From: an uncultured bacterium | GTDB lineage: Bacteria; JAGOEH01 | Direction of reading: 5' to 3' | Assembly (NCBI GenBank): GCA_964632485.1 | Contig: CAZWDO010000003.1 | Location: 218,204 to 282,203, forward strand | Length of the DNA: 64,000 bases | Part shown: positions 1 through 28,348 of the stretch, piece after piece | How the letters are laid out: each line of letters starts with the position of its first letter | Position numbering within the stretch: the first letter of the stretch is position 1 | Made by a program: the position numbers and the translations under genes | Notes under the pieces: generated by a model | Seen by the model: only the letters and a program-made list of their open reading frames with translations | The model's database searches: none | What the model was told of the DNA's origin: nothing

Positions 1-3000
1 GGTACGGCTGGCAAACCTACGTTGAATTCGGCCGTCCGGTCGACATTCAGAACCTCAACGCCGGCGCCACATTGCCGTTTATCCGCTTCTGGGTTGCTGC
101 TCGTCCTTCTGGCTGTTGCGACAGTCCCGAAGGTTCGATGGATCCCAGTTTGGGTGTGGATCTGGCTAACGCCGCAATGACCAATCGCGCCAATTGGGGC
201 GATGAATTCTTTTTTGGAATGTTCCCGGATCTGTTTGGTCCGTGGATGGGTACTCAGGACGGAGAAGCCTATTCTCCATACCGTATCCTTCCCGGAACCG
301 ATTACACAGCTTGTCCGGAGATTCTGGGCGGCGGCACAACCTGGGAACCGGATCTCTTCGAGGTTCGTCCGTCCCTGTTGCTGCGTCCCCGCACCAAAAC
401 CGGCGCCGCGGCCTGGACCACGGTTGACGGTTCGGAAGCTTCGTGGAACAACAAGGCCAATGATAATTCCGTTCCCGCCATGTGGGATGTCCCCGGTTTG
501 ATTCATGGTTGGCAAGGTAATGTGGGTCCTGTGGTCGCCATTGTTGACCCGATGGTCTCCACTGCCTATGCCACTGTTGATTACACCGATGATGGCGATG
601 CAATTTATGAAGCGGCCGACTGGGCTGACGACATGGCGATCCCTACCGGGAACCGTTATGCCTATTCCAGCCAGCAGACTGCTACTCAGGGTGGCGTTTA
701 TACCAACGTCCCGCCTTACACAACCGATTCGATTCAGGTGATCACCTGGGTGATGCAGGATCTCGACAACTGCGCGGATGACACTACGATCCATATCGCC
801 GTTGATACGGGTAACTCCGTATTTGATAACAGCGCCGACTGGTTTGGCAGCGCCGCCAGCGCCGCCGGTATCACCAATAGCGATGCGATCCATTTGGGTA
901 TCGACTCGGTGATTTTCATTGATGACGATAATCGCGGAATCAATCAACGGACCAATGAATTGGGCAACGTGATCGATTATTCGACCGTCAACAATGATCC
1001 GTCCACCTATGCTGATGCTCGCGCTTTATTAGCCATGGGCGGCGCCGGCGCGCATCCCTTCGTGGTTACCAACCGCGCCAATTGCGGTGTGACGTTGATC
1101 CGCGATACCGCGTTATGCGTTGATACCTTGATTTTCAATATCTACCACACCGATATGAATTTGACCGCGGTCGGCGAAACCGATCTGCGCGATTTCGTAT
1201 GGCGTGATGGTATGGTTGTGACTGCCCGGTTGTATGTGAAAGACCGCGGCGGAAATACTGTTTATACGAATTACAGCAAAGCTACCGTTAATAACAATTT
1301 TGTCGGCCGTCCGACTGAAGCCTGGATTACAGCCGGCTATGTGGAAACACGCTTTGCCGTCGATTTGTCCGCGCCGATCGCCAAGATGACTTGCCCCGAG
1401 TACATCAACCGTCCGGGACTCGATTATCAGCCGATACGCGTGGTCAATACGACCGATCCGATTATTCGCATTGAAATCAAAGATGCCTTTTTAAGCGACA
1501 CCACCAATTCTGCGACTAAAGTGGTCAATTGTAATGGTGAAAACCTTTACCCGACCTACCAGCGCAGTGGCGGTATTAATTCCAACGCGATTTATGTGCA
1601 TGATGACAACGCGCATTGGGATGACGCGCTTGCTTACCATTCACCGACGTATGCCCAGTTGACCTCCGGTATCTGGCGTACGAACAATGGTCGCGATGCG
1701 ACACTGGCCCCGGCTCCGGGAACCGGTTTCGATACAACCAACTTCGCGATTCTTTTGACCGTATGGGATTGCGATAACAGTTTAGCGACCGATGACCGCT
1801 TCGATCCGACCAACTTCGGTTGGGATGACGATGAAGATTGGGACACCGACGCCCAGGGTATCTGGGAAGGCGCCGCCGCTCAGGTTTTTATCTGGGAAGT
1901 GGAAGCCGCCAATGGCGTAACGTACGCCAAAGATGCGACTAATCCTCAGAATGGTATCCTCAGCATCAATCTGGCTGATGATTATTTTGACGCATTGGGC
2001 GCCGATACTGAAGACGGCGATGTGATCCTGGTAGAAATCGTCGATGCCGCCCTGGTAGCCGCAAATCGCGTTGCCTGGGGTCATGCTGCTGTTCGCTCCG
2101 ACGGTATTCATGATCAGCCGAATATTCTCTGGAGTCGTTATACCATTAATGATAACCAGTCTTCTACTGATCTGGATGCTGACGCTGAACCAGATTATGC
2201 CGCCGCTACCGCAAACGCGGATGATAACGGCGTATTCCTGCGCGACGACAACTGGTGGTACAACCCGTTGGATGCCCAGAATGTCCCGTTGAACTACCAG
2301 ACGTTTAATTTTCCTACTGGCGTCAATGGCGCCAACCATGAAGCTTTTAATGAAGAGCTTTGCGAACGTTTTAAATTCCGTTTTGGCAATTTTCAGGCCA
2401 ATTTCAACTATGCGTTCGGCAACCCGAACAAGCATTTCCTCCGTTTGGATGAAACCGACAGCGACGATGACGGCGATCATGACGCTCCGGAATACGAATG
2501 GCAGGTTGGGCTTGCCGGTGCCGGTGCCGAAGGTGATTTCCTTGGCTTAGGCTGGTATTTCGCCGATGACGCGCTGCTCGACGCCAATTTGGATGTCGAT
2601 GGCCGCGAACAAGACGGTTATACCTACGCTTCCGATACTCTCGGTTGGTTCTACGTTGATATGACCGGACCAATCGTTGATCTGGAATCGGTATATCCGT
2701 TTATGCGCCGCACCGATGATGGCGATGCCACTTGGTTTGAAAATAACATTGACGGCGCTGTCGCCGGTCATGATGAAGTGGCTACCAATGCCGAAAATCT
2801 TTATTCCTATACTTCCGATCCGTATCAAGTTATTTCGCTTGATCTGGCTGATCTTTCCTGCCGTTTCTATTCGCGCGATTTCGCGGCCGGCATGTCGATG
2901 AGCTCGGTAAAGATGCGGATTAAAGTAACCGCGTGCGACGGTACTTACCACCCGTGGTTTGGACCGAACGGAACGGTTTTCTCGATTGGCAATGGCAACC

Positions 3001-6000
3001 TGGTATCGGCTGATGAGGCCCCTGCTGATTGCCCGGCCTTCTATTTCGACCGTCCCACTGATCTGAACGAAGGCGCTGATGGCGCTGTCGTAACCGATCA
3101 GGCCGCTGACCGCGATCTGGACGATGACGGAACCCCCGATATCGTTGAGAAAGTATTAGGCCGCGTGGGTGGTACAAATGCAGACGATTATGATCTGGCT
3201 GCCGTAACACCGCAGACCCGTATCGTTTTCGACGCGCGTTTAGGCGCCCGTGACACCGAAAACCGCTTGGGATTCGGCACGAGCGAACCTCGTTATCGTT
3301 TCCGCGACGGTGATATGGTTTGCGTGAGCGTGTACGCAACCGATGTCGCCACTGGCGATTGCGACGATAACAATATCGGTAATGAAATCATCAATGAAGC
3401 CGCTTCTGAAAACGGCAATGTAATTACCGATAGCAATTATTTCAAGTACACCTTTGCCGTAGATACCAAAGAACCCACTATTGCCATTCAGAACAGCAAT
3501 AACTGGATGGAATTGGGTTGTAATAACGCGTATGTAGATATCCGCCTCAGTGATGTCTGTGACGAATGTTTTCAGAGCAACCAGTGCGGTGATGTGGCTG
3601 CCGGCGTTGATTCGCTTTTCCTGCAGCTTGAATTCACCCCGCAAGGCTCTGCAACATCGCAACTCAATCGCATTGCCGTCGGTATTTCCGATCTCACCAA
3701 TGCCGCTAATGAATGGGATCCGGTGCTTGAATGGCTGAACCCCGGCATGGAGTGGAATCTGAATAACGCCGCTGCGACTGATCTGTACGGCGCTTTCCTC
3801 GAAGATGCCGAGATCACGGCTGATGCAGCAGTTGATGCGGATTTGCATAAGCATAATGAGTATGCCAGTTCAGCGAACGAAAAAGCAAAATTTAACCATT
3901 ATACCTTGCGTTTATGGTTTAATTGCGATTACGTTGATGATGGCGATATGATCAAAATTTCTGCCTGGGGCCGTGATGCGATTGATGTACCCTGGTACCC
4001 GATTAACAGCGGTTGGGAAAACGGCGGACAGCTCGGCGCGGCCGATCTATCCGAACACCTTTTCCCGCAGGCTTTTGACCGCGTTCAGCAATTGGGCGCC
4101 ATCAACCATTGGTCCACCGCCGATGGCGATTATTATTACGATGACGGCTTATACAATGATATCGAATTCGATACCTATAACTATCGTCGTCATTTTGAAC
4201 ATCCCAACTTCGATATCGACACCGCCCGTTTGAACGGGACGACAGCCGAATGGCGCTGGGATAACAACACGACGCCGACTCGCACCTGGGGTTATTTCAC
4301 TCAGAAGAGTCCGGCTGATTTCTGGTGGCAGGGTCCGTTATACGCCGTTGCCAATGGTACTAATGATTGGCGTACCGGTGTGAACGCTACTGCCGCTTTC
4401 TTGAAGGACAGCACAAACACCGTCGTCAGTTACAATTATGGTAACAGCGATACGCGCAATCGTATGTACGGATTCCAGTATATTCACTGGTACAACGTAT
4501 GTCCGTGGGCGCTGGATTATCTTGCGCAACGCGATTCGTTGCTGACTATCGGCGCCAACAAAGTCGGTAGCTACCGAATTGCCGGCGAACATGTCGGTGA
4601 CAACAACCTCTGGGATCGTGGCGATGTCGGAACGGTTGATGATGCCTGGGTGCCTGGTTCAAACTGGACAGATGTCTTCCAGTATGATATGACGGACTAC
4701 GATTGGACCGATCTGGATTCGATCATGGTAGCCAACGCCGTGCACCACAACTGGGCAAAGCCCGTGGAATCCAATACGATTACCGTCGTATCGAATTCCA
4801 ATCTGTCCCGTGTGTATGATGAAGACTGGAGCACTCGTACGGCTCATGAAGATTGGGCTTGGTCCAATCCTGCCGCGACCAATATCGCTCATAGCGCGCC
4901 TTATGCGGCGTCCTACGGTGATGTTATCCGCGCGGCTGTCGTTGGCAGCGATGTCGATGGCAATGTGATCCGTCAGTATCGCACTGGTTTAGTCGATACG
5001 ATTATGGTTGATTTCCGCTCATGCTGGGATTTCAACTATTGTCATGAACCGATTGCCAACGATACGACCGTCGGTTTTGCCATGGAATGTTACGACAAAG
5101 ACGGTAACATTAAATGGTACTGGCCGTACAAAGTAGATGATATCCGTTATGGCACGGGTAATACCCACGCCAACTGGGAAGCCGCGTTCGCGACCGATAA
5201 AGCCGCCGCTAATGCTAGCGGATTTGCTCCGATCGCTTATCGTTGGTTCGATTGCGATTGTCCCGGATGTAATGGCGTTCGCTGGGCCGCCCTGGCTGAC
5301 AGCGGCTATTGTGGCGCCAACAACTATCGTTTAACTGTTGATCTTAACCAGTTAATTACCTGGAAGACCAATGGCGATTCCGTATGGTTGTCCCGCGGCA
5401 ATACCACTACCGCCTATGCTGATGGCGACAGTGTAATTTGCTACACCTATCTCAGCACGACCGCGACCGATGTCAATGCCGATGATCACAAGATCATCAC
5501 CAGTTGGTACTATCTGATCGATCAGATGGCTCCAGTGGCTAATTTCAATGACATCGAAATGTACACTCCGACCACATCGACGCAGTTGGTTGGTACAGTT
5601 TTTGGTTGGAACTACTACAGTGGACCTTCCACCGGCAATATCGATATGGCCGTTACTGCCCGCACTGCCAGTCTGGCGACTCCAGAATTTTTGGGACTGA
5701 GCGCCAAGGGTGAACAGAACATGGGTCTGGAAGCCAAGCGTTACGATTTCGTACGTATGGGCTTAGCCAATGCCATGGACTATGAAACCCAGCGTACGAT
5801 CGCCGGAACGCAGTATATCTCCAAGGTCGGTTTGACCGGTACTGCCACCGATGTTCGCCATGTAATTGGTAAACAGGAAGCCGGCGTATTGCTGGATGGT
5901 AATGTTTGGACTCAGGATGCCCCTGATGCCAACGTACTGAATATCCCCAATACGATCTGGAACACCCATTACGGCGAAGCCTATGGCGGCGGATATCGCG

Positions 6001-9000
6001 ACACCACTTATTGGGGCGCTGTATATGTTCATGATCAACGCACCAATGTTCGCGAATACATTGATACCCTCAAGTTCTATCTGCAGGATCGTTTAGGCAA
6101 TACCTCGACCTATACCCGCACCTACGTCGTAGATAACATTCTGCCGAAGATGGTGTGGAACTATTGTAATGGTAATCTGAACAAGCAGATGAACCTGAAT
6201 GAAACCGGAAACGATGGTTATTTCGGTTACTGGTTGAATGGCGAAGGCACCAACACCGATTACGATTATACCAGCGAAATGGCTGATTTCGTCGATACGT
6301 TGGGTCTTGCTATTTATCAGGCCAGTGATGCCACGACCACCTGGGAATGGGTGGATGTACTGGCGCTCAAAGGCCATCGCAGTTATACCCCCAATACAGA
6401 CAATTCAGCGGCGGATGCCGATACGATTAAGAATGTCTGTAAGGGTCAAATTTATGTAGTCGTTAATTTTAACGATCTGATGTATACCTCCAAGCTTGAC
6501 GGACATACCTTCTCTTCCGCTGGCGCGGTTAAAATTAAACCGCAGACCGGAGCCTGGAAGAACGTCAGCGCGATTGCCGGAGACCAAGTGACTCGTTTTG
6601 CCGAGAAACTGGCCGGATGGGGCAATGTACCGATTTTGGTCGCACAGGCCAATATGGGTGAAGCCATCAGTGAAATCGCTGTTGCCGATTCCAAAGACCG
6701 CGAAATGCTGGCTGAAAAGTCGAAAAATGCTCAGTTGAGCGCGAAGTATTATGACCAGGATGGCTGGTTGGATGAAAATACCTGGGTTGGTGGCATTTAC
6801 ATCGATACCACTACCGGCTGGAACGGCACTGCCCGTATGTCGGTTGTTGGATTCTATGATAAAGCCGGCAACAAGATGGTAGAAGACACCAGTTTGTGTT
6901 TCTACATCGAGTTCATGACTTCCCAGGGCGACATCATCATCGCCAATCCGGATGCTGACGACATCTATCCAGATGCCGCCAACAGTTGTCAGAATTATAT
7001 TATGATGGAAGATACGGTTATCAACCGTTCCGCTGTCAGCTCCCATTACTGGTTCTACGCGACCAATGGCGTTTATGGTGGAGATTACGGCGCTGATAAC
7101 CAGTTTGACGCTCCGACCGCTTTCAATGCGTTTGGCAGCGTAACTCCCGCTACGAATGCCGCTACTCCGAAACGCGTGCTTTTGTCGCAGGACCGCGCGG
7201 TTGTTTACACCTATTTCCAGGGTAACGCCGCTACGTATACCGACGATTTCGTCACTCGTCAGGACGTCCAGTTCAAGGCCGCCATCGCCGGTATGTCCGG
7301 TTGTGTGGATTCGATTGCCAAGACGGTCGCTCCGATCGAAGTCGATTTCGAGGATCCCGCCGTTTCTATTCTGACTGCGGATATCAACGTGCGTACTGCT
7401 GTTAGCAGCTATCGCAACCTTTATATCGAATCAGAATATTACGACGATGTAACGGCTTACTACGATACCGATGACGCCACCCAGGCCGCCTTGGCTTTCG
7501 GTGAAATCACTGCCGTATCCTTTGCCGTTAAAGATATTACCCGTGGCGATGCTGCTTTCACAACCATAGATTATGCAACCTATACCGATCCGACGCCGGA
7601 AACCGGTTTAGGCTGGGCTTTGGAACTTGATTCCTTAGTAAAATATGGTTTGATTGCCAGCGTTTATGATTCGCTGCACATTCAGTTAACCGCGACTGAC
7701 AATGCGTGCAATACCGGCACCGCTGTCGTTCCGGTTCCGCGTTTGATCTACATGCCGGCTCTGCTGGTCCGTGGACGTTCGCATGTAACGGGCGTCGATC
7801 CGTTGGAAGACGCTGTTCGCTCCGCGAAGTTTGAAGGCCTTGGCGCGGGTTATGCCCGTGAAATCTGGCCGCCTTTCTTCATGTTCAACGAATCGATGGA
7901 AGCTACGGTTACCGATGCCTACACGACACCGGCCAACCCGATCCGTATTCTCGATAGCCTCCAGGTGACGACCTTCACCCATTACAATGAAGCCGATATG
8001 AATCCGGACGTCAATGATCCGTTTGGTCATCTGTTCACGACCACCAAGCGCGATTATCCGGGCGATTCGCTTTACCTTGTATATTTTGACGAAGGTAATT
8101 ATCTGGGAGCCACCGACGATGTTTTCTTCATCGTCGAAGGCGCTGAAGTTGCCAATGGTATCTACAATCCGGGCGTAAAATTCTCCGCTCAGGCTGAAAA
8201 TCCTGAATGGGAATTGGCTGCCCAGCAGACTACCGTTGACGGCGTTACTTTCTGGTATGCCAAGCTGGAACTCGAAGACGAAGACTATGACCAGGATCAG
8301 TTTGTCCAGGTTACCGTTCGCGTCGATACATTGACGACCGGCAAAGCCTACTCGAAGAAGTTCACCGATTATACTTGGTTCCTGTTGGATACCGAGGATC
8401 CGATTTATGATGTTACCTATACCGACGATCAAGGTGTTGATCTCAAACAGGTAGCGACTGCCGTTCAGGTGCTGAACACCGAATCGCAGGGTGGCTACTC
8501 AGTAGATAAGACTTTGGCCGACGCTGGCGACATGGTTTGGATTACCAATGGACAACGCATACACGCCCTGGTTGATATGAATCAAACCATGAGCGCGTTG
8601 GGCGAACCCGTTGAAGCTACTGCTCGTATGTGGAAGCATATTAACGTTGATTTTGAAGCTCCGACTCAGGTGAATATGCGTTCATCCGATGAAGCTTTCC
8701 AGATCGATGTTGATACGCAGACCTACAGCAATTTCAATAACTGGTTAGACAAAGATTCCGTCAAGATTTACGACTTCATGACCTTAATTAACAACAGCAA
8801 TCCTGCCAACAGCGGATTTGCCTGGGTTAAGGTTGAAGAGCGTGATGCCGCCGGTAACTATGTCCGCGACTGGTCAACTGACAAGTGCACGGGCTTGGTA
8901 GTCTATTTGGATACCAAGAAACCGAGCGCGCCGAATGCAGAAAAACTGGGCGCTTATGTCCCGACCGCTTTAGCTGCCAATAATGGTTATGGCGCTGATA

Positions 9001-10469
9001 AAGCCGGTATCCAGGTGCAAGCCATGGAATCCGGTGTAACCGTTTTCGGTTACGTAGGCGCTGCCATTGATGATAGCTGGCCGACTTCGCTGACCCAGCC
9101 CGATAACAGTGTAACGGTTTATATTTATGAAGATGCAACGACCGCCACTCCGTTGGCCACTGCGGTAGCCAAGAATGACGGTAGTTTCACCGTAAATATC
9201 GCCGATGCCACTGAAGACGATGTGTTCTATGTTGCTATCGCTGATTACGCCGGTAATATGTCCGATCGTACCATGGTCACCACCACCGCTATGATCACGC
9301 AGATGATTCCGCTCAATCAGGGCTGGAACCTCTTCAGCGTAAACGTGATGGGTGATGATCTGCAGAAAGTGCTGAAAAATGAGAACGCTGGCCTTTACGC
9401 CAACAGTTTCTTTTATTTCTACACTGAAATGCGCGATGGGACGATTAAATCCTATAAGAAAGAAGATATGGAAGCTCTGCAAGCGACCGATCTGACCGTT
9501 TCTTTAGGAGAAGATAATCTGGCTTACTGGATCTATATGCTGAATGCCGATACCCTGGAAGTTACCGGAACTCCTGTTGATCCGGTCACTGAGATCGAAT
9601 TGGCCGACGGCGTATGGAACTATGTGGCTTACCTGCCGACCACTTCCGCCAAGATTAGCGGCGCTTTCAGCGTAGCTACTCTGGAAAACGTTGATGCGAT
9701 CGCTTCCGATGCATGGCGTACCGATGTGGTTGAAGGTGTTGCCGCTTCCGACAATATGATGTACCCTGGTAAGGGTTATCTGGTTCTGCCTGGCGCCGAA
9801 GGCGTCACTATCGCTTATGCTGCTCAGGGCGCTTTGGCGAAAGCCGAAACCGCTCCCGCGCGCGTCAGCGAAATGGTTGCTTCCCGCTACATGCAGGCTT
9901 TTACCGGTGAAGCCATGTTCTATGGCAAACCCGCCTACGAAGGCGACAAGGTCGAAGTCTTCAACGCCAATGGCGTCAAGTGTGGCGAAGGCTCCGTTGA
10001 CAAAAACGGCCGCTATGAAATCCTCGTTTATGGTGATGATCCTGTCAGTGATGCCGACGAAGGTATCGCGTTGGGTGAAACCTTCATCGTTCGTATCAAC
10101 AACGAAGAAGCTGTTTTCGACAATGCGCCGCTGTATGCCGGTGACCTGAGCAAGAAAGCTCTGAACCTGAATGTTCAGAAACCGTTGCCGAAGGTTTTCA
10201 GCCTGAACCAGAACGTCCCGAACCCGTTCAATCCGTCCACGATCATATCGTACGATGTTCCGAAAGCTGCTCATGTATCCCTGGTTATTTACAATAATCT
10301 CGGTGAAAGAGTATGCGCTTTGGTGAATGGCGCCAAAGAACCTGGAACCTATACGATTCGCTGGAACGGCGAGAACCAAAAGGGCGAAAAAGTAGCCAGC
10401 GGTGTTTATTTCTACAAGATGAAAGCCGGGGATTTTGAAGATTCCCGTCAGATGATGCTTGTAAAATAA
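1..10469 (+). CDS. Giant secreted/cell-surface protein (>3465 aa, 5'-truncated by the window edge) with a C-terminal T9SS type-A sorting domain. It is Asp/Asn/Thr/Trp/Tyr-rich and carries multiple DxDxDG-like putative Ca-binding motifs.
   Basis: The reading frame is open from position 3 to the stop at 10469, with no in-frame stop upstream of the annotated TTG at 72. The C-terminus reads ...NQNVPNPFNPSTIISYDV...GVYFYKMKAGDF...LVK, typical of a Por/T9SS C-terminal domain. Acidic motifs include DYTDDGDA, DSDDDGDHD, DLDDDGTPD and DYVDDGDM. A terminator follows the gene. Confidence 0.8.
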   Translation, partial: YGWQTYVEFGRPVDIQNLNAGATLPFIRFWVAARPSGCCDSPEGSMDPSLGVDLANAAMTNRANWGDEFFFGMFPDLFGPWMGTQDGEAYSPYRILPGTDYTACPEILGGGTTWEPDLFEVRPSLLLRPRTKTGAAAWTTVDGSEASWNNKANDNSVPAMWDVPGLIHGWQGNVGPVVAIVDPMVSTAYATVDYTDDGDAIYEAADWADDMAIPTGNRYAYSSQQTATQGGVYTNVPPYTTDSIQVITWVMQDLDNCADDTTIHIAVDTGNSVFDNSADWFGSAASAAGITNSDAIHLGIDSVIFIDDDNRGINQRTNELGNVIDYSTVNNDPSTYADARALLAMGGAGAHPFVVTNRANCGVTLIRDTALCVDTLIFNIYHTDMNLTAVGETDLRDFVWRDGMVVTARLYVKDRGGNTVYTNYSKATVNNNFVGRPTEAWITAGYVETRFAVDLSAPIAKMTCPEYINRPGLDYQPIRVVNTTDPIIRIEIKDAFLSDTTNSATKVVNCNGENLYPTYQRSGGINSNAIYVHDDNAHWDDALAYHSPTYAQLTSGIWRTNNGRDATLAPAPGTGFDTTNFAILLTVWDCDNSLATDDRFDPTNFGWDDDEDWDTDAQGIWEGAAAQVFIWEVEAANGVTYAKDATNPQNGILSINLADDYFDALGADTEDGDVILVEIVDAALVAANRVAWGHAAVRSDGIHDQPNILWSRYTINDNQSSTDLDADAEPDYAAATANADDNGVFLRDDNWWYNPLDAQNVPLNYQTFNFPTGVNGANHEAFNEELCERFKFRFGNFQANFNYAFGNPNKHFLRLDETDSDDDGDHDAPEYEWQVGLAGAGAEGDFLGLGWYFADDALLDANLDVDGREQDGYTYASDTLGWFYVDMTGPIVDLESVYPFMRRTDDGDATWFENNIDGAVAGHDEVATNAENLYSYTSDPYQVISLDLADLSCRFYSRDFAAGMSMSSVKMRIKVTACDGTYHPWFGPNGTVFSIGNGNLVSADEAPADCPAFYFDRPTDLNEGADGAVVTDQAADRDLDDDGTPDIVEKVLGRVGGTNADDYDLAAVTPQTRIVFDARLGARDTENRLGFGTSEPRYRFRDGDMVCVSVYATDVATGDCDDNNIGNEIINEAASENGNVITDSNYFKYTFAVDTKEPTIAIQNSNNWMELGCNNAYVDIRLSDVCDECFQSNQCGDVAAGVDSLFLQLEFTPQGSATSQLNRIAVGISDLTNAANEWDPVLEWLNPGMEWNLNNAAATDLYGAFLEDAEITADAAVDADLHKHNEYASSANEKAKFNHYTLRLWFNCDYVDDGDMIKISAWGRDAIDVPWYPINSGWENGGQLGAADLSEHLFPQAFDRVQQLGAINHWSTADGDYYYDDGLYNDIEFDTYNYRRHFEHPNFDIDTARLNGTTAEWRWDNNTTPTRTWGYFTQKSPADFWWQGPLYAVANGTNDWRTGVNATAAFLKDSTNTVVSYNYGNSDTRNRMYGFQYIHWYNVCPWALDYLAQRDSLLTIGANKVGSYRIAGEHVGDNNLWDRGDVGTVDDAWVPGSNWTDVFQYDMTDYDWTDLDSIMVANAVHHNWAKPVESNTITVVSNSNLSRVYDEDWSTRTAHEDWAWSNPAATNIAHSAPYAASYGDVIRAAVVGSDVDGNVIRQYRTGLVDTIMVDFRSCWDFNYCHEPIANDTTVGFAMECYDKDGNIKWYWPYKVDDIRYGTGNTHANWEAAFATDKAAANASGFAPIAYRWFDCDCPGCNGVRWAALADSGYCGANNYRLTVDLNQLITWKTNGDSVWLSRGNTTTAYADGDSVICYTYLSTTATDVNADDHKIITSWYYLIDQMAPVANFNDIEMYTPTTSTQLVGTVFGWNYYSGPSTGNIDMAVTARTASLATPEFLGLSAKGEQNMGLEAKRYDFVRMGLANAMDYETQRTIAGTQYISKVGLTGTATDVRHVIGKQEAGVLLDGNVWTQDAPDANVLNIPNTIWNTHYGEAYGGGYRDTTYWGAVYVHDQRTNVREYIDTLKFYLQDRLGNTSTYTRTYVVDNILPKMVWNYCNGNLNKQMNLNETGNDGYFGYWLNGEGTNTDYDYTSEMADFVDTLGLAIYQASDATTTWEWVDVLALKGHRSYTPNTDNSAADADTIKNVCKGQIYVVVNFNDLMYTSKLDGHTFSSAGAVKIKPQTGAWKNVSAIAGDQVTRFAEKLAGWGNVPILVAQANMGEAISEIAVADSKDREMLAEKSKNAQLSAKYYDQDGWLDENTWVGGIYIDTTTGWNGTARMSVVGFYDKAGNKMVEDTSLCFYIEFMTSQGDIIIANPDADDIYPDAANSCQNYIMMEDTVINRSAVSSHYWFYATNGVYGGDYGADNQFDAPTAFNAFGSVTPATNAATPKRVLLSQDRAVVYTYFQGNAATYTDDFVTRQDVQFKAAIAGMSGCVDSIAKTVAPIEVDFEDPAVSILTADINVRTAVSSYRNLYIESEYYDDVTAYYDTDDATQAALAFGEITAVSFAVKDITRGDAAFTTIDYATYTDPTPETGLGWALELDSLVKYGLIASVYDSLHIQLTATDNACNTGTAVVPVPRLIYMPALLVRGRSHVTGVDPLEDAVRSAKFEGLGAGYAREIWPPFFMFNESMEATVTDAYTTPANPIRILDSLQVTTFTHYNEADMNPDVNDPFGHLFTTTKRDYPGDSLYLVYFDEGNYLGATDDVFFIVEGAEVANGIYNPGVKFSAQAENPEWELAAQQTTVDGVTFWYAKLELEDEDYDQDQFVQVTVRVDTLTTGKAYSKKFTDYTWFLLDTEDPIYDVTYTDDQGVDLKQVATAVQVLNTESQGGYSVDKTLADAGDMVWITNGQRIHALVDMNQTMSALGEPVEATARMWKHINVDFEAPTQVNMRSSDEAFQIDVDTQTYSNFNNWLDKDSVKIYDFMTLINNSNPANSGFAWVKVEERDAAGNYVRDWSTDKCTGLVVYLDTKKPSAPNAEKLGAYVPTALAANNGYGADKAGIQVQAMESGVTVFGYVGAAIDDSWPTSLTQPDNSVTVYIYEDATTATPLATAVAKNDGSFTVNIADATEDDVFYVAIADYAGNMSDRTMVTTTAMITQMIPLNQGWNLFSVNVMGDDLQKVLKNENAGLYANSFFYFYTEMRDGTIKSYKKEDMEALQATDLTVSLGEDNLAYWIYMLNADTLEVTGTPVDPVTEIELADGVWNYVAYLPTTSAKISGAFSVATLENVDAIASDAWRTDVVEGVAASDNMMYPGKGYLVLPGAEGVTIAYAAQGALAKAETAPARVSEMVASRYMQAFTGEAMFYGKPAYEGDKVEVFNANGVKCGEGSVDKNGRYEILVYGDDPVSDADEGIALGETFIVRINNEEAVFDNAPLYAGDLSKKALNLNVQKPLPKVFSLNQNVPNPFNPSTIISYDVPKAAHVSLVIYNNLGERVCALVNGAKEPGTYTIRWNGENQKGEKVASGVYFYKMKAGDFEDSRQMMLVK

Positions 10470-10494
10470 GCGCCTCACGCATAGACTGATAAGT

Positions 10495-10526
10495 GGGTCA
10501 GGGCGCGAGCCCTGGCCCCCTTTTTT
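10495..10526 (+). terminator. Rho-independent terminator after the giant gene
   Basis: GC-rich stem gggtcagggc/gccctggccc with a gcga loop, followed by cccccTTTTTT. Confidence 0.5.
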
Positions 10527-10664
10527 CAGTTATTGCCTTGCGATACCTGAAAAAAGGGAAGCACCAAATAAAACCGACCAAGAAAAGGAGGCGCTGCTTC
10601 GGATCTTTTACACACGTCTATTGTTTCAGTTAACCAAAAACGCTCGTCAAAACGGAGGGTTTAA

Positions 10665-12326
10665 ATGAGCTTGAAAAAAACCTTGATTCTTTTCATGATT
10701 CTGACGCTGGGATTGATTGGATCTCTCAGCGCCCAAGTACGTTACATCGATATCCAGGGAACGCAGTCCTTTTATAATTGCGGTCCCGTTGAACCCGGCG
10801 CCATTATTGAAGCCTATAATCAATATGACGTCAAATTGGCTCAAACGATTGTTATTAATGGCGGCCGCTATAGCATCCGTATATTTGAGGCCGATACGAT
10901 TAATCAGATTTTCGGTGTTCAAGAAGGCGAATTGATCAGTCTGGTTATCGATGGAAATGAAGTCATGCCTTATGGAGCATACGAATACCCCATCGTCTAT
11001 GCCAACGAAACCGGCGCCGACGTCATTGATTTTGAGTTTATGGCTCAGGATCCGGATGTTGTAACTAAATCCATCTATTTTATGACTTTTTCCAGTAGCG
11101 CAACCTATCTGAATGGCGGCTTAGTTCCTGTTGGAGCCATTGTTGAAGCGTTTATTCTAGAAACGGGAAAACAGATTGGAATAGATACCGTAAAGGTGAA
11201 TGGCCGATATAATATGAGCGCGTATGCCGATGCGGATATTACTGATTTCTGCGTTGAAGGCGCGCAAGCCGGTGACTCGATTGTTTTCACCATTAATGGC
11301 GCGATGGCCAAAGTGGTTGCCGGAAATGCGACATTTACCAGCGCTATGGATGTACAGACCGTTGATTTGTGCGCCAATGACGGCGTTATCGGCAGCGCGC
11401 AGAGTTGTTCATTTTACGGCGCCGTTTCGGTCAATGGCGTCAATGCCACGGCTGGTACTATTGTTACCGCCTATGATACCGATGGCATTGTTTGCGGACA
11501 ATTTACACTGACCCAGAATGGCCATTACAGTATGCTGGTATTCGGCGATGATGCCGCCACCGATGATGTATGCATGGATGAAGGCGCCCTCGAAGGTGAA
11601 GAGGTGGTGTTCTTTGTCGATGATGAGCCGGCTACCCAGTCTCCAGCCAATGTGACCTGGGTGCGGAATGGTATGTTGGAAGTCAATCTGACCGTCGGAC
11701 AGGCTCAGAGTAACAGTTGGTGCGATTTTATCGGCATCAATTGTAAATTTAACGGCGCTCCGCTTGCCCAGGGAATGACCGTCGCGGCTTATAATGCCCT
11801 TGACGATCAAATGTGCGGCACAGCGACCGTCGGCGCTCTCGGCGCTTTTACTATACGGGTGGTCGGTAAATCCGAGACTCCCGTTGTCGAAGGCCCGGAA
11901 GAAAATGATCCGATCTATTTTATGATTAATAACGAACGCGCTGCGGTTAAATCTCCCTATAACGATACTCTGTTCAGCAATTGGGGCAGTAAGTATGTTA
12001 CTTTGGAATCGCGCGTGGTTCCTGTAGTGGAAGATCAGAAAATCAACAAATCGTTGGAATTGAAACAGAATTATCCGAATCCATTCAACGGAACCACGGT
12101 AATTAGTTTCAATCTGCCTTCCGCGCAGAAAGTTTCCCTCAAAGTGTACAATATGCTGGGAGAGGAAATCTGCGTATTGGCGAACCGAACGATGTCCGCC
12201 GGATCGCATGAAATCGTTTGGGACGGCCAGGATCGTAATGGCCGCAGCGTTCCTTCCAGTATTTATTATTACCAGTTGTTGACGGGTCAGGAAAAACTCG
12301 TTAAACGTATGGTTTATATGAAATAG
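10665..12326 (+). CDS. Secreted T9SS cargo protein (553 aa) with four tandem ~100-aa repeats of an unassigned module and a C-terminal T9SS sorting domain
   Basis: RBS GGAGGG precedes the ATG. The N-terminus is a signal peptide (MSLKKTLILFMILTLGLIGSLSAQ). The module recurs four times with NG[RH]Y..GDD...EGA..GE..F.IN motifs. The C-terminus reads KQNYPNPFNGTTVISFNLP...YYYQL...VYMK. Confidence 0.8.
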   Translation: MSLKKTLILFMILTLGLIGSLSAQVRYIDIQGTQSFYNCGPVEPGAIIEAYNQYDVKLAQTIVINGGRYSIRIFEADTINQIFGVQEGELISLVIDGNEVMPYGAYEYPIVYANETGADVIDFEFMAQDPDVVTKSIYFMTFSSSATYLNGGLVPVGAIVEAFILETGKQIGIDTVKVNGRYNMSAYADADITDFCVEGAQAGDSIVFTINGAMAKVVAGNATFTSAMDVQTVDLCANDGVIGSAQSCSFYGAVSVNGVNATAGTIVTAYDTDGIVCGQFTLTQNGHYSMLVFGDDAATDDVCMDEGALEGEEVVFFVDDEPATQSPANVTWVRNGMLEVNLTVGQAQSNSWCDFIGINCKFNGAPLAQGMTVAAYNALDDQMCGTATVGALGAFTIRVVGKSETPVVEGPEENDPIYFMINNERAAVKSPYNDTLFSNWGSKYVTLESRVVPVVEDQKINKSLELKQNYPNPFNGTTVISFNLPSAQKVSLKVYNMLGEEICVLANRTMSAGSHEIVWDGQDRNGRSVPSSIYYYQLLTGQEKLVKRMVYMK

Positions 12327-12372
12327 TTGCTTTGGAAATCAAAGCAGTCTTTGTTTTAAAAGTCATCATTAC

Positions 12373-12410
12373 GCCGCCTTTATCCCAAACCGGGTAAAGG
12401 CGGCTTTTTT
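12373..12410 (+). terminator. Rho-independent terminator
   Basis: Stem gccgccttta ... taaaggcggc followed by TTTTTT. Confidence 0.55.
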
Positions 12411-12424
12411 GTTTAGTCAGGACC

Positions 12425-12592
12425 GTCATTCCGGGCTCGCGCCCGGAATCCACGGGTCACCTTCTGTCATTCCGGGCTTGACCCGGAATCCAACGATAAA
12501 CGATGGATGCCGGATCGGAGTCCGGCATGACGACGGATGATGGCATTCCGGCTTGACCGCCAGCGCGGCTCGCGCCCGGAATCCACGGGTCA
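12425..12592. repeat. Cluster of at least 4 GC-rich palindromic REP/MITE-like hairpin repeats (GTCATTCC-stem-loop-GGAATCC family)
   Basis: Perfect hairpins are present: gtcATTCCGGGCtcgcGCCCGGAATcc at 12425-12451, gtcATTCCGGGcttgaCCCGGAATcc at 12466-12491 and ATGCCGGAtcggagTCCGGCAT at 12507-12528. The segment ctcgcgcccggaatccacgggtca is duplicated at 12564-12592. Confidence 0.6.
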
Positions 12593-12605
12593 AAAAACCA
12601 ACTAT

Positions 12606-14351
12606 ATGAAAGGAACAAGCATGAGAAGAGTTTTTCAATATCTTCTGCTAATATTAATATCTATTATATCGGTCAGCCAAGCCCAGCAGTCCTGGAGAGT
12701 TGGATTTAAGCTGTATGTATTTATCGATAGCGTCAAAGCGCCCATTCATACAATCGTTGAAGTAAGAGATGTTAATGGTAGTCAATATGATAGTCAAAGT
12801 AAACCCTATGCGTCTCCAATAGTCTCAGAAGTTGAAACATCCTTAGGTACGGCTTTTATTAATGCTCTGGGCGATAATCCGAATACTTCCACAGTACAGG
12901 AAGGCGGATTTACTATTGGCCAAAAAATTTATTTCTATGTCAATAGCAAACGGGCAACAGTTAAGTGTAAGAGCCCGAGTAGTAATTGTGATCTTTATAC
13001 TAACCCTTCTGATCCTACGTTTCCCCCTTCCCAACGGGAGCTGGAAATTTACATTTCTTCCCAGCAACAGACCATTGATACATGTACTTTTACAGGCAGT
13101 GTGTTCATCAACAATGCGCCGGCTCCGGCAGGCTCCCAGATATCGTTTCACGACAAGAACAATCCTACAACATACACCTGGAAAACGATCGCCACTTCGT
13201 CATTGGGCTCATACACGGTAAAAATTGCGGAAGATGATCCGGAAACTACCGGTAAGCAAGGTCCTCTTGATGGAGACACTTTGATTGCGCGAATAAATAA
13301 TTTGTCCGCCGGATCGGATATCCCGCTTATTTTCCGTCCGGGACAAACCCAAATGGTAAGTCTTTCCTATACGGACCCTGACACTTTGCTGTGTACATTT
13401 AATGGAATGATGTGTATGCTGGACGGTCAATTCATAACGTCTCTGGTAACTGTGGAGGCCTTTAATAAGTACAATAAAGTGTGCGGCGCGGCAATCGGGA
13501 CATCCACTCCGGTTCCGGGTTCGTTTACCTTGAATGTTCGCAAAGAAAAAGGCGATAATACCGGTGTCGTAGAAGGCGATTCTGTTTATTTTAAGTTTAA
13601 CGGAGGCAAGGCCCGAACGACAACCATGAGTCCGACGCTTTCTCCATTTTTTTGTTATGAGGATTCCTCATATATGGTGGTTTTGGAAGCAACAACTCCG
13701 CCGCCACCCCAACCGGATACTAATTTTTTTATGCAGTTGTCCGGAACATTGTATGCCGGAGGAGCAGTGGCCAAGCGAAATCTGATTACTGTTAAAACCA
13801 GCGGGAAGACCATGGCTTGTACCACCGCTACCAACGATAACGGACAATTTATCCTGAAAGCCTGGGGCGATAGTCCGTTGACTACCGATGTGGTTGAAGG
13901 CTTTGAGGATGAAGATACCCTGACTTTTTACCATCTTTACAACGGAACAAATCAACCCGTTCAGATGCTCTATCCGACGACGCCCATCACATATGAATTG
14001 TTTGGACTGATTGCGAATATTATGATTTATAACAGTATCGTCGATATAGAAGCAGAAGAAACGCTGATCAAATCTCCAGCTCTGCTTTTATCCAATATTC
14101 CTAATCCGTTCAACCCCGGTACAAATATCCGCTTTAATTTAACAGAACGAACCAATGTGCAGATAACTATATTTAATGTGTTGGGGAATGAAATCAGGCG
14201 ATTGTCAAACCAGCTTTTCCCGGCGGGTGAACACCAGCTCTACTGGAACGGTTGCAGCGATCAGGGTGAACCTCAGTCCGCTGGTATCTACTTTGTCCGT
14301 TTACGGGCAGCGGATATGCAGCATACGCAGAAAATCACACTGATGAAATGA
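12606..14351 (+). CDS. Secreted T9SS cargo protein (~580 aa) with repeated modules related to the upstream neighbour. The start is probably ATG 12606 or 12621, not 12537, which lies inside the repeats.
   Basis: Signal peptide MRRVFQYLLLILISIISVSQAQ. The internal modules carry DNGQFILKAWGD...VVEGFEDEDTLTF-type motifs. The C-terminus reads LSNIPNPFNPGTNIRFNL...GIYFVRL..., a T9SS CTD. GC content is lower than in the flanking genes. Confidence 0.75.
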   Translation: MKGTSMRRVFQYLLLILISIISVSQAQQSWRVGFKLYVFIDSVKAPIHTIVEVRDVNGSQYDSQSKPYASPIVSEVETSLGTAFINALGDNPNTSTVQEGGFTIGQKIYFYVNSKRATVKCKSPSSNCDLYTNPSDPTFPPSQRELEIYISSQQQTIDTCTFTGSVFINNAPAPAGSQISFHDKNNPTTYTWKTIATSSLGSYTVKIAEDDPETTGKQGPLDGDTLIARINNLSAGSDIPLIFRPGQTQMVSLSYTDPDTLLCTFNGMMCMLDGQFITSLVTVEAFNKYNKVCGAAIGTSTPVPGSFTLNVRKEKGDNTGVVEGDSVYFKFNGGKARTTTMSPTLSPFFCYEDSSYMVVLEATTPPPPQPDTNFFMQLSGTLYAGGAVAKRNLITVKTSGKTMACTTATNDNGQFILKAWGDSPLTTDVVEGFEDEDTLTFYHLYNGTNQPVQMLYPTTPITYELFGLIANIMIYNSIVDIEAEETLIKSPALLLSNIPNPFNPGTNIRFNLTERTNVQITIFNVLGNEIRRLSNQLFPAGEHQLYWNGCSDQGEPQSAGIYFVRLRAADMQHTQKITLMK

Positions 14352-14433: not shown

Positions 14434-14721
14434 ATGGATCAGGCTTATGTTTATATATTAGCCAGTAAAAAAAATGGAACATTGTATGTTGGAGTGACCA
14501 GCAATTTGCTCCGACGAATTTGGGAACATAAAAATGATCTTGTAGAAGGATTTACAAAGAACTACAATGTCCATGTGCTGGTTTTTTATGAAATTTTTAG
14601 TGAGATGTATCCGGCAATTACTCGTGAAAAGCAGTTGAAAAAATGGAAAAGAGAATGGAAGATAGGACTAATAGAGTCTATAAATCCGCAATGGAAAGAT
14701 TTGTATGAAAGTCTTTTATAA
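14434..14721 (+). CDS. GIY-YIG nuclease family protein (95 aa, UPF0213/YhbQ-like)
   Basis: YVYILASKKNGTLYVGVTSNLLRRIWEHK followed by ...REKQLKKWKREWKIGLI match the GIY-YIG catalytic core pattern (GIY...YVG...R...E). Confidence 0.8.
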   Translation: MDQAYVYILASKKNGTLYVGVTSNLLRRIWEHKNDLVEGFTKNYNVHVLVFYEIFSEMYPAITREKQLKKWKREWKIGLIESINPQWKDLYESLL

Positions 14722-14724
14722 AAG

Positions 14725-14850
14725 ATGGATGCCGGGTCAAGCCCGGCATGACGGCGGTGGCTCATGGATGCCGGGTCAAGCCCGGCATGACGGCGGTGAC
14801 TCATGGATGCCGGGTCAAGCCCGGCATGACGGCGGTGATTTATGGATGGC
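14725..14850. repeat. Tandem array of ~3.3 copies of a 39-bp unit. Each unit contains the hairpin ATGCCGGGtcaagCCCGGCAT, the reverse-orientation variant of the 12.4 kb REP family.
   Basis: Unit atggatgccgggtcaagcccggcatgacggcggtgRctc at 14725-14763, 14764-14802 and 14803-14841, plus a partial fourth copy. The loop tcaag is the reverse complement of cttga in the 12466 copy. Confidence 0.7.
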
Positions 14851-14892: not shown

Positions 14893-16410
14893 GTGGATCA
14901 GGTGAATTTATTTTCAATGCTTGACTGGATAGTTTTGGGAATTTATGTTATTGGATTAATCGCTTTAGGATGGTGGGTAAGTGGACGTCAAACAGGTGTA
15001 AAAGATTATTTTTTGGGAAGCCGGCAAATACCCTGGTGGGCTGTCGGTATTTCCATCGTTGCCGCTGAGACCAGCGCGCTCACCTTCATCGGCGTCCCCG
15101 CCATGGCATACGCTCAAGGGGGCGATCTTTCCTATGCCCAGATACTCATTGGCTATATCCTGGCGCGCATCATTCTGTCTATCATCATGGTCCCTGCCTA
15201 CTTCAAAGGTGAAATCTATTCTGCCTATCAATTGATCGGCAATCGTTTCGGCAAGGCTCCGCTGATTCTTTGCTCGTTGTTTTTTTTAATCGGCGGATCA
15301 TTGGCTGCGGGTGTGCGTGTCTATGTTACCGCCATACCGCTCCAGCAGATATTAAATGTTGATGTTTCCGTTGCCATTGTTGCGTTTGTTGCCATTGCTT
15401 TGTTTTATAGTATCAAGGGAGGTGTAAAATCAGTGATTTGGACTGATTTTATGCAATTTGCTTTATTTATCGGGGGAGGAATTTTCACCTTGTTTTATGT
15501 TCCTTCGCGCATGCCCGGCTTATCCTGGAGCGCTATATTCAGCCAGGCTGCCGCTGCCGGAAAAATGCGCTGGTTTTATCCTGAATTTTCCTTTCAAGCT
15601 CCGTTTAACATCTGGATGGGATTGATTGGCGCGACAATCGGAGTCATATACAGCCACGGGGTCGATCAATTACTCGTGCAGAAAGTGCTCTGTTGCAGGG
15701 ATGTTCGGGATGGGCGCAAAGCTCTCATTCTTTCAGCGATCATCGTATTTCCTCTATTCATGATTTTTTTGCTGGTAGGAGTTATGTTATTCGTTTATAC
15801 TTCAAATTACCCATCGGCGATAACATTGCCGTTGAACGCCTCGGGGATCCCAAAATGGGATTACATATTTCCCCTGTTTATTGTCGGACAGATGCCGCCG
15901 GTTATCAAGGGCGTATTAATTGCAGCGATATTGGCGGCTGCTTTATCCTCTATCAGCGGCGCTTTGAGCGCATTGTCATCTGTATGGACCATGGAATTCT
16001 ATCGTCGGTATTTAAATACGAAGCGGGACGAGAGAGGTTACCTTAATTATTCGCGCCGGGTGATGGGGGTTTTTAGTATTGTTTTGGCGGCAATTGCTTT
16101 TTTGAGTCAGAATGTGCCATTGGTATTCAATTTGGCCTTTTCTTTAGCTGGACTTACAGCCGGGGCTTTGCTGGGCGCGGTTATACTCTCTTTGTGGGGA
16201 CGTGAACGGCGGGCATGGCCGGTTTTAACCGGGATGGGTGTCTCTTTTGCTTTGATGAGTGTGATTGTGGTGATGAATCTGCAGCATAAGTTGTCGATAT
16301 TCTGGCCCTGGTACCCGATGATCGGTATGCTGGCCATGCTTTCTGTAACGATTTTTTTGCAGAAAATCGCCTGTCAAAAAAGTGCTGTACGGAACAACTC
16401 TGATGATTGA
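14893..16410 (+). CDS. Sodium:solute symporter family (SSF) transporter
   Basis: Multi-pass membrane protein. The N-terminal region FLGSRQIPWWAVGISIVAAETSALTFIGVPAMAY is typical of SSF/SglT/PutP-like carriers. GTG start with a nearby alternative ATG. Confidence 0.8.
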   Translation: MDQVNLFSMLDWIVLGIYVIGLIALGWWVSGRQTGVKDYFLGSRQIPWWAVGISIVAAETSALTFIGVPAMAYAQGGDLSYAQILIGYILARIILSIIMVPAYFKGEIYSAYQLIGNRFGKAPLILCSLFFLIGGSLAAGVRVYVTAIPLQQILNVDVSVAIVAFVAIALFYSIKGGVKSVIWTDFMQFALFIGGGIFTLFYVPSRMPGLSWSAIFSQAAAAGKMRWFYPEFSFQAPFNIWMGLIGATIGVIYSHGVDQLLVQKVLCCRDVRDGRKALILSAIIVFPLFMIFLLVGVMLFVYTSNYPSAITLPLNASGIPKWDYIFPLFIVGQMPPVIKGVLIAAILAAALSSISGALSALSSVWTMEFYRRYLNTKRDERGYLNYSRRVMGVFSIVLAAIAFLSQNVPLVFNLAFSLAGLTAGALLGAVILSLWGRERRAWPVLTGMGVSFALMSVIVVMNLQHKLSIFWPWYPMIGMLAMLSVTIFLQKIACQKSAVRNNSDD

Positions 16411-16485: not shown

Positions 16486-16810
16486 ATTGAACGCGCAGCA
16501 AATTTTTTTACTCGACAATTCAACAAATTTTTAGTCATAAATATTTTAATTTTGATTTGAGTATGTAAAGGTTTTTTTTCTAAATGAAATTCTATAGTAA
16601 GTTTAGTTGAGTTTTAAAAATTAACTTATTATTAATCAATCACATCGAAATATATTTGTTTATTAAATACACAGTATTTGCCATTTGAGGACTCGCTTTT
16701 GGCAGCAAATTTTTATATATGGACACAAATCAGACAAATTTCACTCCTGAAAGTGGTCAGGAAAAAACTTGAGTTTTAAGTTGGAATGAAAAATGCAATA
16801 TTGTACATGT

Positions 16811-18052
16811 ATGAAAATTAGAAGTCGAATTATACTCAGTTTCCTTCCTTTCCTTCTCCTTAGCGGAACCATGGAGGGACGGGTCTGGTTGGTAGCGGTC
16901 GGTATCGATCGATACCTCGATGCCCGCATCCCGTCTCTCCACTATCCGTCAGCCGATGTAAGCTACGTGCTTGATGTATTAGCTGTAAATCCCAGTCGCG
17001 TGATACCCCGTCAGTTGCTGAATGAGGAAGCGACCTGGCGCGGATTGCGAAGTCTGCTACTAAATACATTGCAACGGCAAATGGTTGATACTGATACCCT
17101 GGTTTTCTATTTTTCAGGGCATGGGCATTTTCTGGAGGACTCGAAATTGGGCAATCATCAATATATAGCGCTCTATGACAGCTCGCCGGATGATATGAGT
17201 ACCTACCTTAATGAAGATGAATTAGCCGGATGGCTTGATCGGATTCACTGCCGTTTGAAAATTCTTATTTTTGATTCCTGCTCACCGATGGACTTTCGAA
17301 TTGAGGCAATTTCAACACTGCCGTTAAATAATCCCCGAAGTTTAAAGAATATGCTTATATGGTCTGCCAATCAGGAGCAGGGAAAAACATGGGAGGTACC
17401 ATTTCTCAACCATTCGGCATTTACGTTTCTTCTGATGCAAGCATGGAAAGGTTACGCCGATGCGGATCGTAACGGTAAAGTCAGCGTTAAAGAGACCCGT
17501 CGTTATCTGGACTCGATGATCCTGAAAATTCCAGGCGCTGCCGAATATCGGCCACAAACCGTCGTCAATGGCGATCCGTTGACATTAAATGATTTTCAGT
17601 GGGTTTATCCGCCGCAGATTATATCACAGGCGATAGTGGTTGCAATCGACAGCAGTCATGCTGTTATTGACATGGGTAGAGAAAATTTGCCATCCAGGAA
17701 TGCGATTTGCTATCATCCCGCCACTCAGCAACGCTATAAATTTTTAGAGATACTGGATTATGCTGCTATGATCGAACGCAACGGCATGTTAAAAATGGGA
17801 GATCGGTTGGAGATTAAAATGCCGGATGCAGGTGGGGAATTGATTCTGGAAGTTAAACCCTGGGCCATGGCCGAATTGAATCAACGCCCCTACGGTTATA
17901 CTCCCCTGCGAATCAAAGATTTAGCTCCCGGCGAGTATAAGTTGCGCTTGACTCATCCGGAACTGGGCGCCCGGGTTCTTAATTTTTCGTTGACGCCTGG
18001 CGAGCAAAAACGACTTTTTATCAATTTTGCTGAACTACCGGAGTCGGAATGA
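16811..18052 (+). CDS. Secreted caspase-like cysteine peptidase (peptidase C14/CHAT-like fold) with a C-terminal PEGA domain
   Basis: Signal peptide MKIRSRIILSFLPFLLLSG. The caspase His/Cys dyad context is present: VGIDRY...YFSGHGH...ILIFDSCS. The C-terminal PYGYTPLRIKDLAPGEYKLRLTHPELG matches the PEGA motif. A 4-bp ATGA overlap joins it to the next gene. Confidence 0.7.
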   Translation: MKIRSRIILSFLPFLLLSGTMEGRVWLVAVGIDRYLDARIPSLHYPSADVSYVLDVLAVNPSRVIPRQLLNEEATWRGLRSLLLNTLQRQMVDTDTLVFYFSGHGHFLEDSKLGNHQYIALYDSSPDDMSTYLNEDELAGWLDRIHCRLKILIFDSCSPMDFRIEAISTLPLNNPRSLKNMLIWSANQEQGKTWEVPFLNHSAFTFLLMQAWKGYADADRNGKVSVKETRRYLDSMILKIPGAAEYRPQTVVNGDPLTLNDFQWVYPPQIISQAIVVAIDSSHAVIDMGRENLPSRNAICYHPATQQRYKFLEILDYAAMIERNGMLKMGDRLEIKMPDAGGELILEVKPWAMAELNQRPYGYTPLRIKDLAPGEYKLRLTHPELGARVLNFSLTPGEQKRLFINFAELPESE

Positions 18053-22693: not shown

Positions 22694-22703
22694 CCTTTCC
22701 CCA

Positions 22704-23753: not shown

Positions 23754-23768
23754 ATTAGGGAGAGAATT

Positions 23769-25289: not shown

Positions 25290-25483
25290 CTTTGATTTGT
25301 AAAAAGAAGCATCGGTTTCCAATCTATACTATTTTTTGTATGGTATCTCACCGGTTAAACTAAAGGCTGATTGATTAGTCCCGTGGAATGACGCGAATTG
25401 TAATATGTTATGGCCGAATGGGTCTGACTATCCGTTTGCAGACTCATTTTAATTTGCAATGATATAAAAAGAAAGGAAAGAGA

Positions 25484-26694: not shown

Positions 26695-27043
26695 GGGGGC
26701 GAACATGGTTTCGACGGGGAAAAAGAAGTGCCGGTTGCATACCGAGGACCCTGAGGCCTCGTAAAAAACAGGGAACAAGTTAGCTGCGAACGATTACTCG
26801 TACGCCATGGCTGCCTAATTCGCGGCCTCCCTATTTGCTTTCTCCCCTGATGGGAAGTGAATCGGGTCGATTAGTCAGGGTGCTGCGCAGCCCGAGTCTG
26901 AGGGTCAGGCCTAAGAACAAACAGACTGGTCAGCAGTGACGTTGGCTTTCTCTCTTACTGCTGATGAGATTAAAAGAAAGCTATGTATGTAGACGCTGGT
27001 ATGGAAGATTCTTCGGACGTGGGTTCGACTCCCACCGCCTCCA
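26695..27043 (+). ncRNA. ssrA: Transfer-messenger RNA (tmRNA, SsrA)
   Basis: The 5' end GGGGGCGAACAUGGUUUCGACGGGG is the tRNA-like acceptor/D analogue. An internal ORF follows the resume codon: GCG AAC GAT TAC TCG TAC GCC ATG GCT GCC TAA, giving tag ANDYSYAMAA. The 3' end ends GGGUUCGACUCCCACCGCCUCCA (T-arm, acceptor strand complementary to the 5' GGGGGCG, discriminator A); CCA is not encoded. Confidence 0.85.
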
Positions 27044-28339: not shown

Positions 28340-28348
28340 GAGGATTTG

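Follow-up and report, generated by a model that had tools for sequence, protein, structure and literature searches.

Three consecutive genes in an uncultured bacterium (GTDB lineage JAGOEH01) share a secreted module that has no Pfam or NCBIfam model. The genes occupy positions 3-14351 of a 64,000-nucleotide stretch (contig CAZWDO010000003.1, positions 218,204 to 282,203; hereafter the window), all on one strand, and encode a giant protein, a 553-amino-acid (aa) protein (A) and a 576-aa protein (B), each ending in a sorting domain for type IX secretion (T9SS). The module is a genuine, ancient extracellular beta-sandwich domain of ~105 residues, and A and B are most likely rods of four modules each, without catalytic function and anchored at the surface, that act together with the giant. 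With moderate confidence, we favour the explanation that the module is a sandwich domain of the choice-of-anchor kind, that A and B are fixed-architecture partners of the giant, and that a conserved acidic loop is a putative binding site.

An earlier note on this DNA, made from the sequence alone, had described a ~100-aa module common to three consecutive T9SS cargo genes, and the translations place the peptides it quoted where it had put them. We built a hidden Markov model (HMM) from the four copies in A and searched it against the 326 six-frame open reading frames (ORFs) of the window. This recovered B at E 1.7e-18, with copies at independent E-values (i-E) of 2.6e-4, 1e-8 and 0.031, and the giant at E 1.9e-11, with its copy at i-E 1.4e-10; the next-best ORF in the window reached E 0.35. 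Reciprocally, an HMM from the second to fourth copies of B alone found A (E 4.9e-13). Off-register BLAST matches also connected A, B and the tail of the giant, and the fourth module of A together with its sorting domain aligned as a unit to the corresponding pair in the giant, at 32% identity across 195 aa. These cross-validated HMMs bear out the shared module and led us to reject chance or a compositional artefact as the source of the repeat.

Nine copies were identified in the window, one in the giant, four in A and four in B, against the total of about 11 given in the earlier note; profile searches found no further copies, either within the giant or in the rest of the window. The i-E values that follow come from an HMM of 47 modules built without the divergent first copy of B, and all features lie on the plus strand. 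The sole copy in the giant, G1 (9873..10178), stands directly before its sorting domain and matched profile positions 2-104 (i-E 2.6e-25). Protein A (10665..12326 by translation), identical to a protein on Joint Genome Institute (JGI) contig Ga0207193_1000008, consists of an apparent signal peptide, four modules and the sorting domain, and has no other part. Its modules are A1 (aa 25-126, 10737..11042, i-E 6.1e-20), A2 (aa 133-238, 11061..11378, 2.2e-28), A3 (aa 241-345, 11385..11699, 7.7e-31), which is the most canonical, and A4 (aa 346-450, 11700..12014, 1.9e-28). In protein B (12621..14351), B1 (12684..13031) has an insertion after the central hairpin and was recovered at i-E 9.5e-6 by the HMM that did not contain it; B2 (13062..13373, 2.7e-22), B3 (13374..13694, 6.5e-20) and B4 (13710..14033, 6.4e-17) follow.

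All three proteins exceeded the cut-off of 23 bits for the T9SS type A sorting domain model TIGR04183 (NCBIfam), in line with the proposal that the three consecutive genes encode T9SS cargo. The giant scored 25.7 bits (10218..10451), A 33.0 bits (12072..12314) and B 32.3 bits (14100..14336). A and B also passed the 27-bit cut-off of PF18962 (29.0 and 30.8 bits); the giant fell below it (16.1 bits) and passed FlgD_ig instead (37.6 bits). Read by eye, the signal peptides of A (MSLKKTLILFMILTLGLIGSLSA/Q) and B (MRRVFQYLLLILISIISVSQA/Q) both look canonical.

No named family captured the module in Pfam 2025, NCBIfam 2026 or the sequences of the PDB, in agreement with the earlier note, which had not recognised it as a known domain. 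Over the module region of the window proteins NCBIfam gave no match, and Pfam gave only partial Big_6 matches below threshold, the best of which (18.5 bits, gathering threshold 27.6) spanned model positions 23-52 of 83. When 47 isolated modules were compared with Pfam, only Big_6 recurred (6 of 47 at E<=1, best 2e-5, all partial and sub-threshold). The module aligned by hhalign to the 85-aa immunoglobulin-like (Ig) repeats of one related protein (P0009) with 90% probability, over 33 columns only, and profile searches of PDB sequences found nothing significant, with UafA as the best match (E 0.12). These faint matches would fit a module that belongs to Big_6, Cna-B, SdrD-B or the carboxypeptidase-regulatory domains but has diverged so far that current HMMs miss it. 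However, the Big_6 and hhalign overlap is confined to a central hairpin (G-x-x-V-x-A-x-D-x-x-G-x-x-C-G-x-x-x-V-x-x-x-G-x-Y) and does not extend over the whole domain, no module reached any gathering threshold, and CarboxypepD_reg, Cna-B, SdrD_B and SpaA matched none of the 47 modules at E<=1. CarboxypepD_reg, SdrD_B and SpaA did match other regions of the same module-bearing proteins. Since the matches stop at ~33 columns, the module appears to be a distinct family that shares one hairpin, at profile positions ~20-52, with Big_6 (PF17936) and the related 85-aa bacterial Ig repeats of giant adhesins. In contrast to Big_6, it has 20 more residues and an unrelated second half; the genuine Big_6 copies in the giant stand upstream of G1.

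The earlier note had also proposed predicting the structure of one module. AlphaFold2 with the 47-sequence alignment and A3 as target gave a confident all-beta sandwich (predicted local distance difference test, pLDDT, 93.5; predicted template modelling score, pTM, 0.86) of eight strands, with one short helix in the acidic loop. A prediction for the whole of protein A from its single sequence was useless (pLDDT 37). Foldseek searches of the PDB with the A3 model found nothing at E<=1e-3, and the best matches were weak, with query template modelling (TM) scores of 0.43-0.48, below 0.5 throughout. The top match was UafA (E 2.3e-3, TM 0.43), in the same region as the best PDB profile match; others were the PapC C-terminal domain (target TM 0.58), intradiol dioxygenases, the SusC N-terminal extension, SpaA/BcpA (Cna-B) pilins, teneurin and the VHL beta domain. 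We take all of these to be prealbumin-like folds, and presumably CarboxypepD_reg, Cna-B, SdrD_B and SpaA belong to the Pfam Transthyretin clan.

On the model, the module probably belongs to the prealbumin-like fold class, as a divergent branch of it. Like Cna-B (PF05738), SdrD_B (PF17210), SpaA (PF17802), CarboxypepD_reg (PF13620) and PapC_C (PF13953), it is an all-beta sandwich of ~100 residues found in tandem in secreted or surface proteins, and prealbumin-like surface domains give both its best Foldseek matches and its faint sequence echoes (PapC_C at E ~0.02, as well as UafA). Unlike these families, it met no family threshold, its TM-scores stayed below 0.5, and it has a signature of its own: the loop YGDDPxTxxDEGAxxGD with its short helix, and a C-terminal W-x-x-N-G. 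No isopeptide-bond triad was identified in the module, nor was one tested for. The outcome that the earlier note had named as a refutation, a confident assignment to a well-characterised domain, came about only in part: the fold weakly resembles the Cna-B/carboxypeptidase-regulatory class, and no assignment at family level was possible. A uniformly prealbumin-like Foldseek list, as we read it, and the recurrence of UafA speak for a very divergent member of a known family; given the short overlap and the low query TM-scores, we consider that reading unlikely.

The module is widespread. When 1.84 billion cluster representatives were searched exhaustively with a profile, 2,410 matched with E<=1e-3, and 650 reached E<=1e-10. 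Among the 150 best, 124 carry at least one near-full-length copy, and the others are giant adhesins that match solely a 30-residue hairpin. Word-indexed homology searches with the 9-module and 47-module alignments returned no matches, and a related-locus search with protein A returned sorting-domain matches only, in Eisenbacteria metagenome-assembled genomes (MAGs). Modules mostly occur in pairs or higher numbers per protein, and proteins that consist almost wholly of modules (such as P0033, P0035, P0036 and P0074), including ones of barely more than two, had no Pfam or NCBIfam match over the module; two of the simple module proteins (P0033 and P0022) sit on 3-kb contigs. A T9SS tail (Por_Secre_tail) was present in 32 of 70 module proteins; across the 70, the other frequent partners were Ig-like HYDIN/ASH/DUF1573 domains, separate CarboxypepD_reg domains, fn3, Big_6/9 and cohesin. 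Dockerin, a set of three LysM repeats and an archaeal PGF-CTERM anchor were each seen in individual module proteins. Because the anchors vary, copies usually number two or more and a catalytic domain is almost always absent, the module behaves, as far as domain composition indicates, as an anchor-independent extracellular building block of choice-of-anchor type. It resembles the NCBIfam choice-of-anchor domains (choice_anch_D, NF012200) in that one extracellular domain precedes a T9SS tail, PGF-CTERM, dockerin or LysM. Unlike those families, it is matched by no NCBIfam model, and none of them matches the window proteins; in P0029, choice_anch_D lies between two modules and so covers another region.

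The same partners bear on whether the module binds carbohydrate or another polymer, in which case A and B would be multivalent substrate-capture proteins feeding a degradative system. Dockerin and cohesin co-occur with the module, tandem multivalency is typical of binding modules, and the module keeps aromatic residues at set places (W/F/Y close to its N-terminus, the Y of G-x-Y, and a W within the final third), although these may be plain core residues. However, neither the window nor the syntenic loci have a linked gene for a glycoside hydrolase, lyase or SusC/D, and the 25 commonest partner families of the module include no catalytic one. We regard this alternative as rather improbable, slightly more so than a divergent known domain.

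The consensus of the well-conserved members reads ..pTnEWv.Fyg.....nG.p.p.G.vv.AyDp.Gv.CG.ftV...G.Y.m.VY.DDp.Tp.DEGA.pGDti.F.iNG..A...gp..p.Wt.nGd...v.L. The acidic loop, Y-G-D-D-P-x-T-x-x-D-E-G-A-x-x-G-D, is the most conserved part of the module, and its residues D55, D56, T59, E66, G67 and G71 (A3 numbering) are 84-100% conserved. It is degenerate in A1 (by conserved-column comparison), A4 and B3. This pattern of conservation suggests a putative Ca2+- or ligand-binding site that would still be used at some module positions only; A1, A4 and B3, which have lost the loop, would serve purely as structural spacers.

We compared the locus with other lineages. A Logan contig from another sample (SRR19430209, L007) carries the same ten genes in identical order: giant, A-type protein, B-type protein, Peptidase_C14 plus PEGA protein, CHASE2 histidine kinase, sigma-54 response regulator, two proteins of no assigned kind, a T9SS cargo protein (506-509 aa) and PNP_UDP_1. 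The seven co-conserved downstream genes span 16793-26371 in the window and 9612-18945 in L007. In a third lineage (GCA_964384205.1) a 2,005-aa giant adjoins an A-type protein. The architecture is conserved in the three lineages, with copy number and placement of 1, 4 and 4 throughout. In a neighbour-joining tree every module clustered with the same position in the orthologues of the two other lineages (B1, for instance, with P0004.1 and P0020.1) and never with its neighbours, and nothing pointed to recent duplication or to concerted evolution. On this evidence from the tree, the duplications are old and each position has been kept individually.

The earlier note had suggested a diversifying surface-protein family of tandem paralogues, possibly related to adhesins or S-layers; we read this as variable surface antigens under diversifying selection. 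Between the window and L007, identity is 60-62% for cytoplasmic proteins and 36-42% for other secreted or sensor proteins; at 31-32%, A and B are the most diverged in the conserved cluster. Copies within one protein are just 14-30% identical. However, A and B are only slightly more diverged than the other secreted proteins, every module has a positional orthologue across the three lineages, copy number is fixed, and the synteny extends over ten genes. Positional orthology and fixed order argue against variable antigens and for a fixed architecture, and the suggestion of diversifying paralogues was not borne out; we consider it largely refuted and very improbable.

The giant itself, whose gene (3..10469) runs on the plus strand in a single open frame from base 3 to its stop and extends beyond the left edge of the window, encodes at least 3,488 aa within the window. 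JGI calls on a near-identical contig imply a start ~935 nucleotides upstream and a full length of ~3,800 aa. The protein is acidic (D 9.9%). Self-BLAST found no internal repeats, its Pfam domains are limited to two Big_6 copies and the tail, and PDB sequences gave no match. It is 40-42% identical over ~2,000 aa to the giants of two other lineages (L007 and L006), and the one relative of it that carries a name, a hypothetical protein, comes from a Candidatus Delongbacteria MAG (36% identity).

JGI metagenome contig Ga0207193_1000008 (316 kb) matches the window at 99.9% identity. In place of five window bases (CTGTT, 7813-7817) that contig has a 10-N scaffold gap, which led the JGI gene caller to split the giant artificially into 2,969 and 834 aa; six more mismatches cluster at 773-855. 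The earlier note had given B 604 aa. That this protein carries the module is confirmed, with four copies, and its true start is most likely 12621 and not the mechanical ORF start at 12537, since the 12621 start yields the clean signal peptide MRRVFQYLLLILISIISVSQA and agrees with the JGI call; both this call and the cluster representative (P0003) have 576 aa. The spacer from the terminator of A to the start of B (12420-12590) is filled with REP-like palindromes (CCGGGCTYGNNCCCGGAATCC; 3 matches, where 0.04 would be expected), which create the spurious upstream ATG.

Intrinsic-terminator-like hairpins on the plus strand follow the giant (10495..10527; 10-bp stem, 8 G-C pairs, then a T run) and A (12373..12412; 13-bp stem, 8 G-C pairs, then TTTTTT), and L007 has hairpins at the equivalent places after its giant and A-type genes. 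With such strong hairpins and T runs, the giant, A and B appear to be separate transcription units. A scan for sigma-54 promoters showed no enrichment (48 matches against 53 expected) and none upstream of A or B, where the lone match upstream of A was rejected as it overlaps the terminator of the giant and lacks the -12 GC; a sigma-70 scan gave background level only.

In the mechanism we favour, A and B would be exported over the inner membrane by Sec, as their signal peptides suggest. By analogy with Porphyromonas, T9SS would carry them across the outer membrane, and a PorU-type sortase would remove the sorting domain and attach them covalently to surface lipopolysaccharide (PMC4560394, PMC8545088, PMC4804311, PMC5445135). 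The result on the cell surface would be a rod of four sandwich beads of ~45 kDa. Like gingipain-type T9SS cargo of Porphyromonas (PMC4804311, PMC5445135), A and B have what looks by eye like an N-terminal signal peptide, and a sandwich domain directly before a C-terminal beta-sandwich sorting domain; unlike gingipains, they have no functional 'head' domain, and T9SS is known here from sorting domains alone. Because the order of the trio and the module positions are co-conserved across deep divergence, we infer that A and B are partners of the giant, and because the giant carries the same module directly before its tail, that they act beside it. They would be structural or adhesive partners in one surface assembly and not variable antigens.

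Four observations weigh against this explanation. T9SS machinery genes, including the translocon and PorU/PorV/PorZ, are absent from the window, so that secretion by T9SS is argued from the sorting domain alone. In GCA_964384205.1 a five-module B-type protein (P0004) lies away from the giant/A pair, so gene order does not everywhere require all three to co-operate physically. The genes are, from their terminators, individually terminated and so do not form one operon. Finally, the putative binding of Ca2+ or a ligand is deduced solely from the acidity and conservation of the loop.

The seven conserved downstream genes may form a sensory unit that is linked with the surface proteins. A wider reading would make the module a bacterial and archaeal choice-of-anchor family with a new Ca2+/ligand loop, and the trio a surface structure controlled by the neighbouring caspase-like/PEGA, CHASE2 kinase and sigma-54 regulator genes; taken together, we think this doubtful. 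Within the cluster, the Peptidase_C14 (caspase-like) gene 3' of the trio carries a weak PEGA domain, the two genes of no assigned kind encode 418 aa and 349 aa (the latter with a Big_7 domain), the T9SS cargo protein has beta-helix-like repeats, and PNP_UDP_1 is a phosphorylase. The syntenic locus in L007 lacks the segment 14352-16410, which lies between B and the caspase-like gene and, on that comparison, looks like an insertion. Within this segment are a small GIY-YIG ORF (14434-14721), three 39-bp palindromic repeats in tandem (14725-14848) and the gene for a sodium:solute symporter (14893-16410). Further along are a transfer-messenger RNA gene with tag peptide ANDYSYAMAA (26695-27043) and an SbcD/SbcC nuclease pair (27107-32053), and elsewhere in the window methylmalonyl-CoA mutase, carboxyltransferase, RNase R and HtpG. 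Such genes are the usual chromosomal surroundings in an anaerobe-like bacterium.

The module represents a new family within a familiar class of domains. It is mechanistically unsurprising, but its absence from the databases is a useful annotation gap. Tandem beta-sandwich modules on secreted proteins are commonplace, and our view of how such proteins work is unchanged. The domain occurs in thousands of uncultured bacterial and archaeal protein clusters, where it is invisible to Pfam and NCBI annotation models, and because it has no model, A- and B-like proteins are labelled by their sorting tail alone. A seed alignment, a confident structural model and a signature loop are in hand for a family definition, which would improve the annotation of cell-surface proteomes in candidate phyla and would also provide a handle on a conserved giant-protein surface locus.

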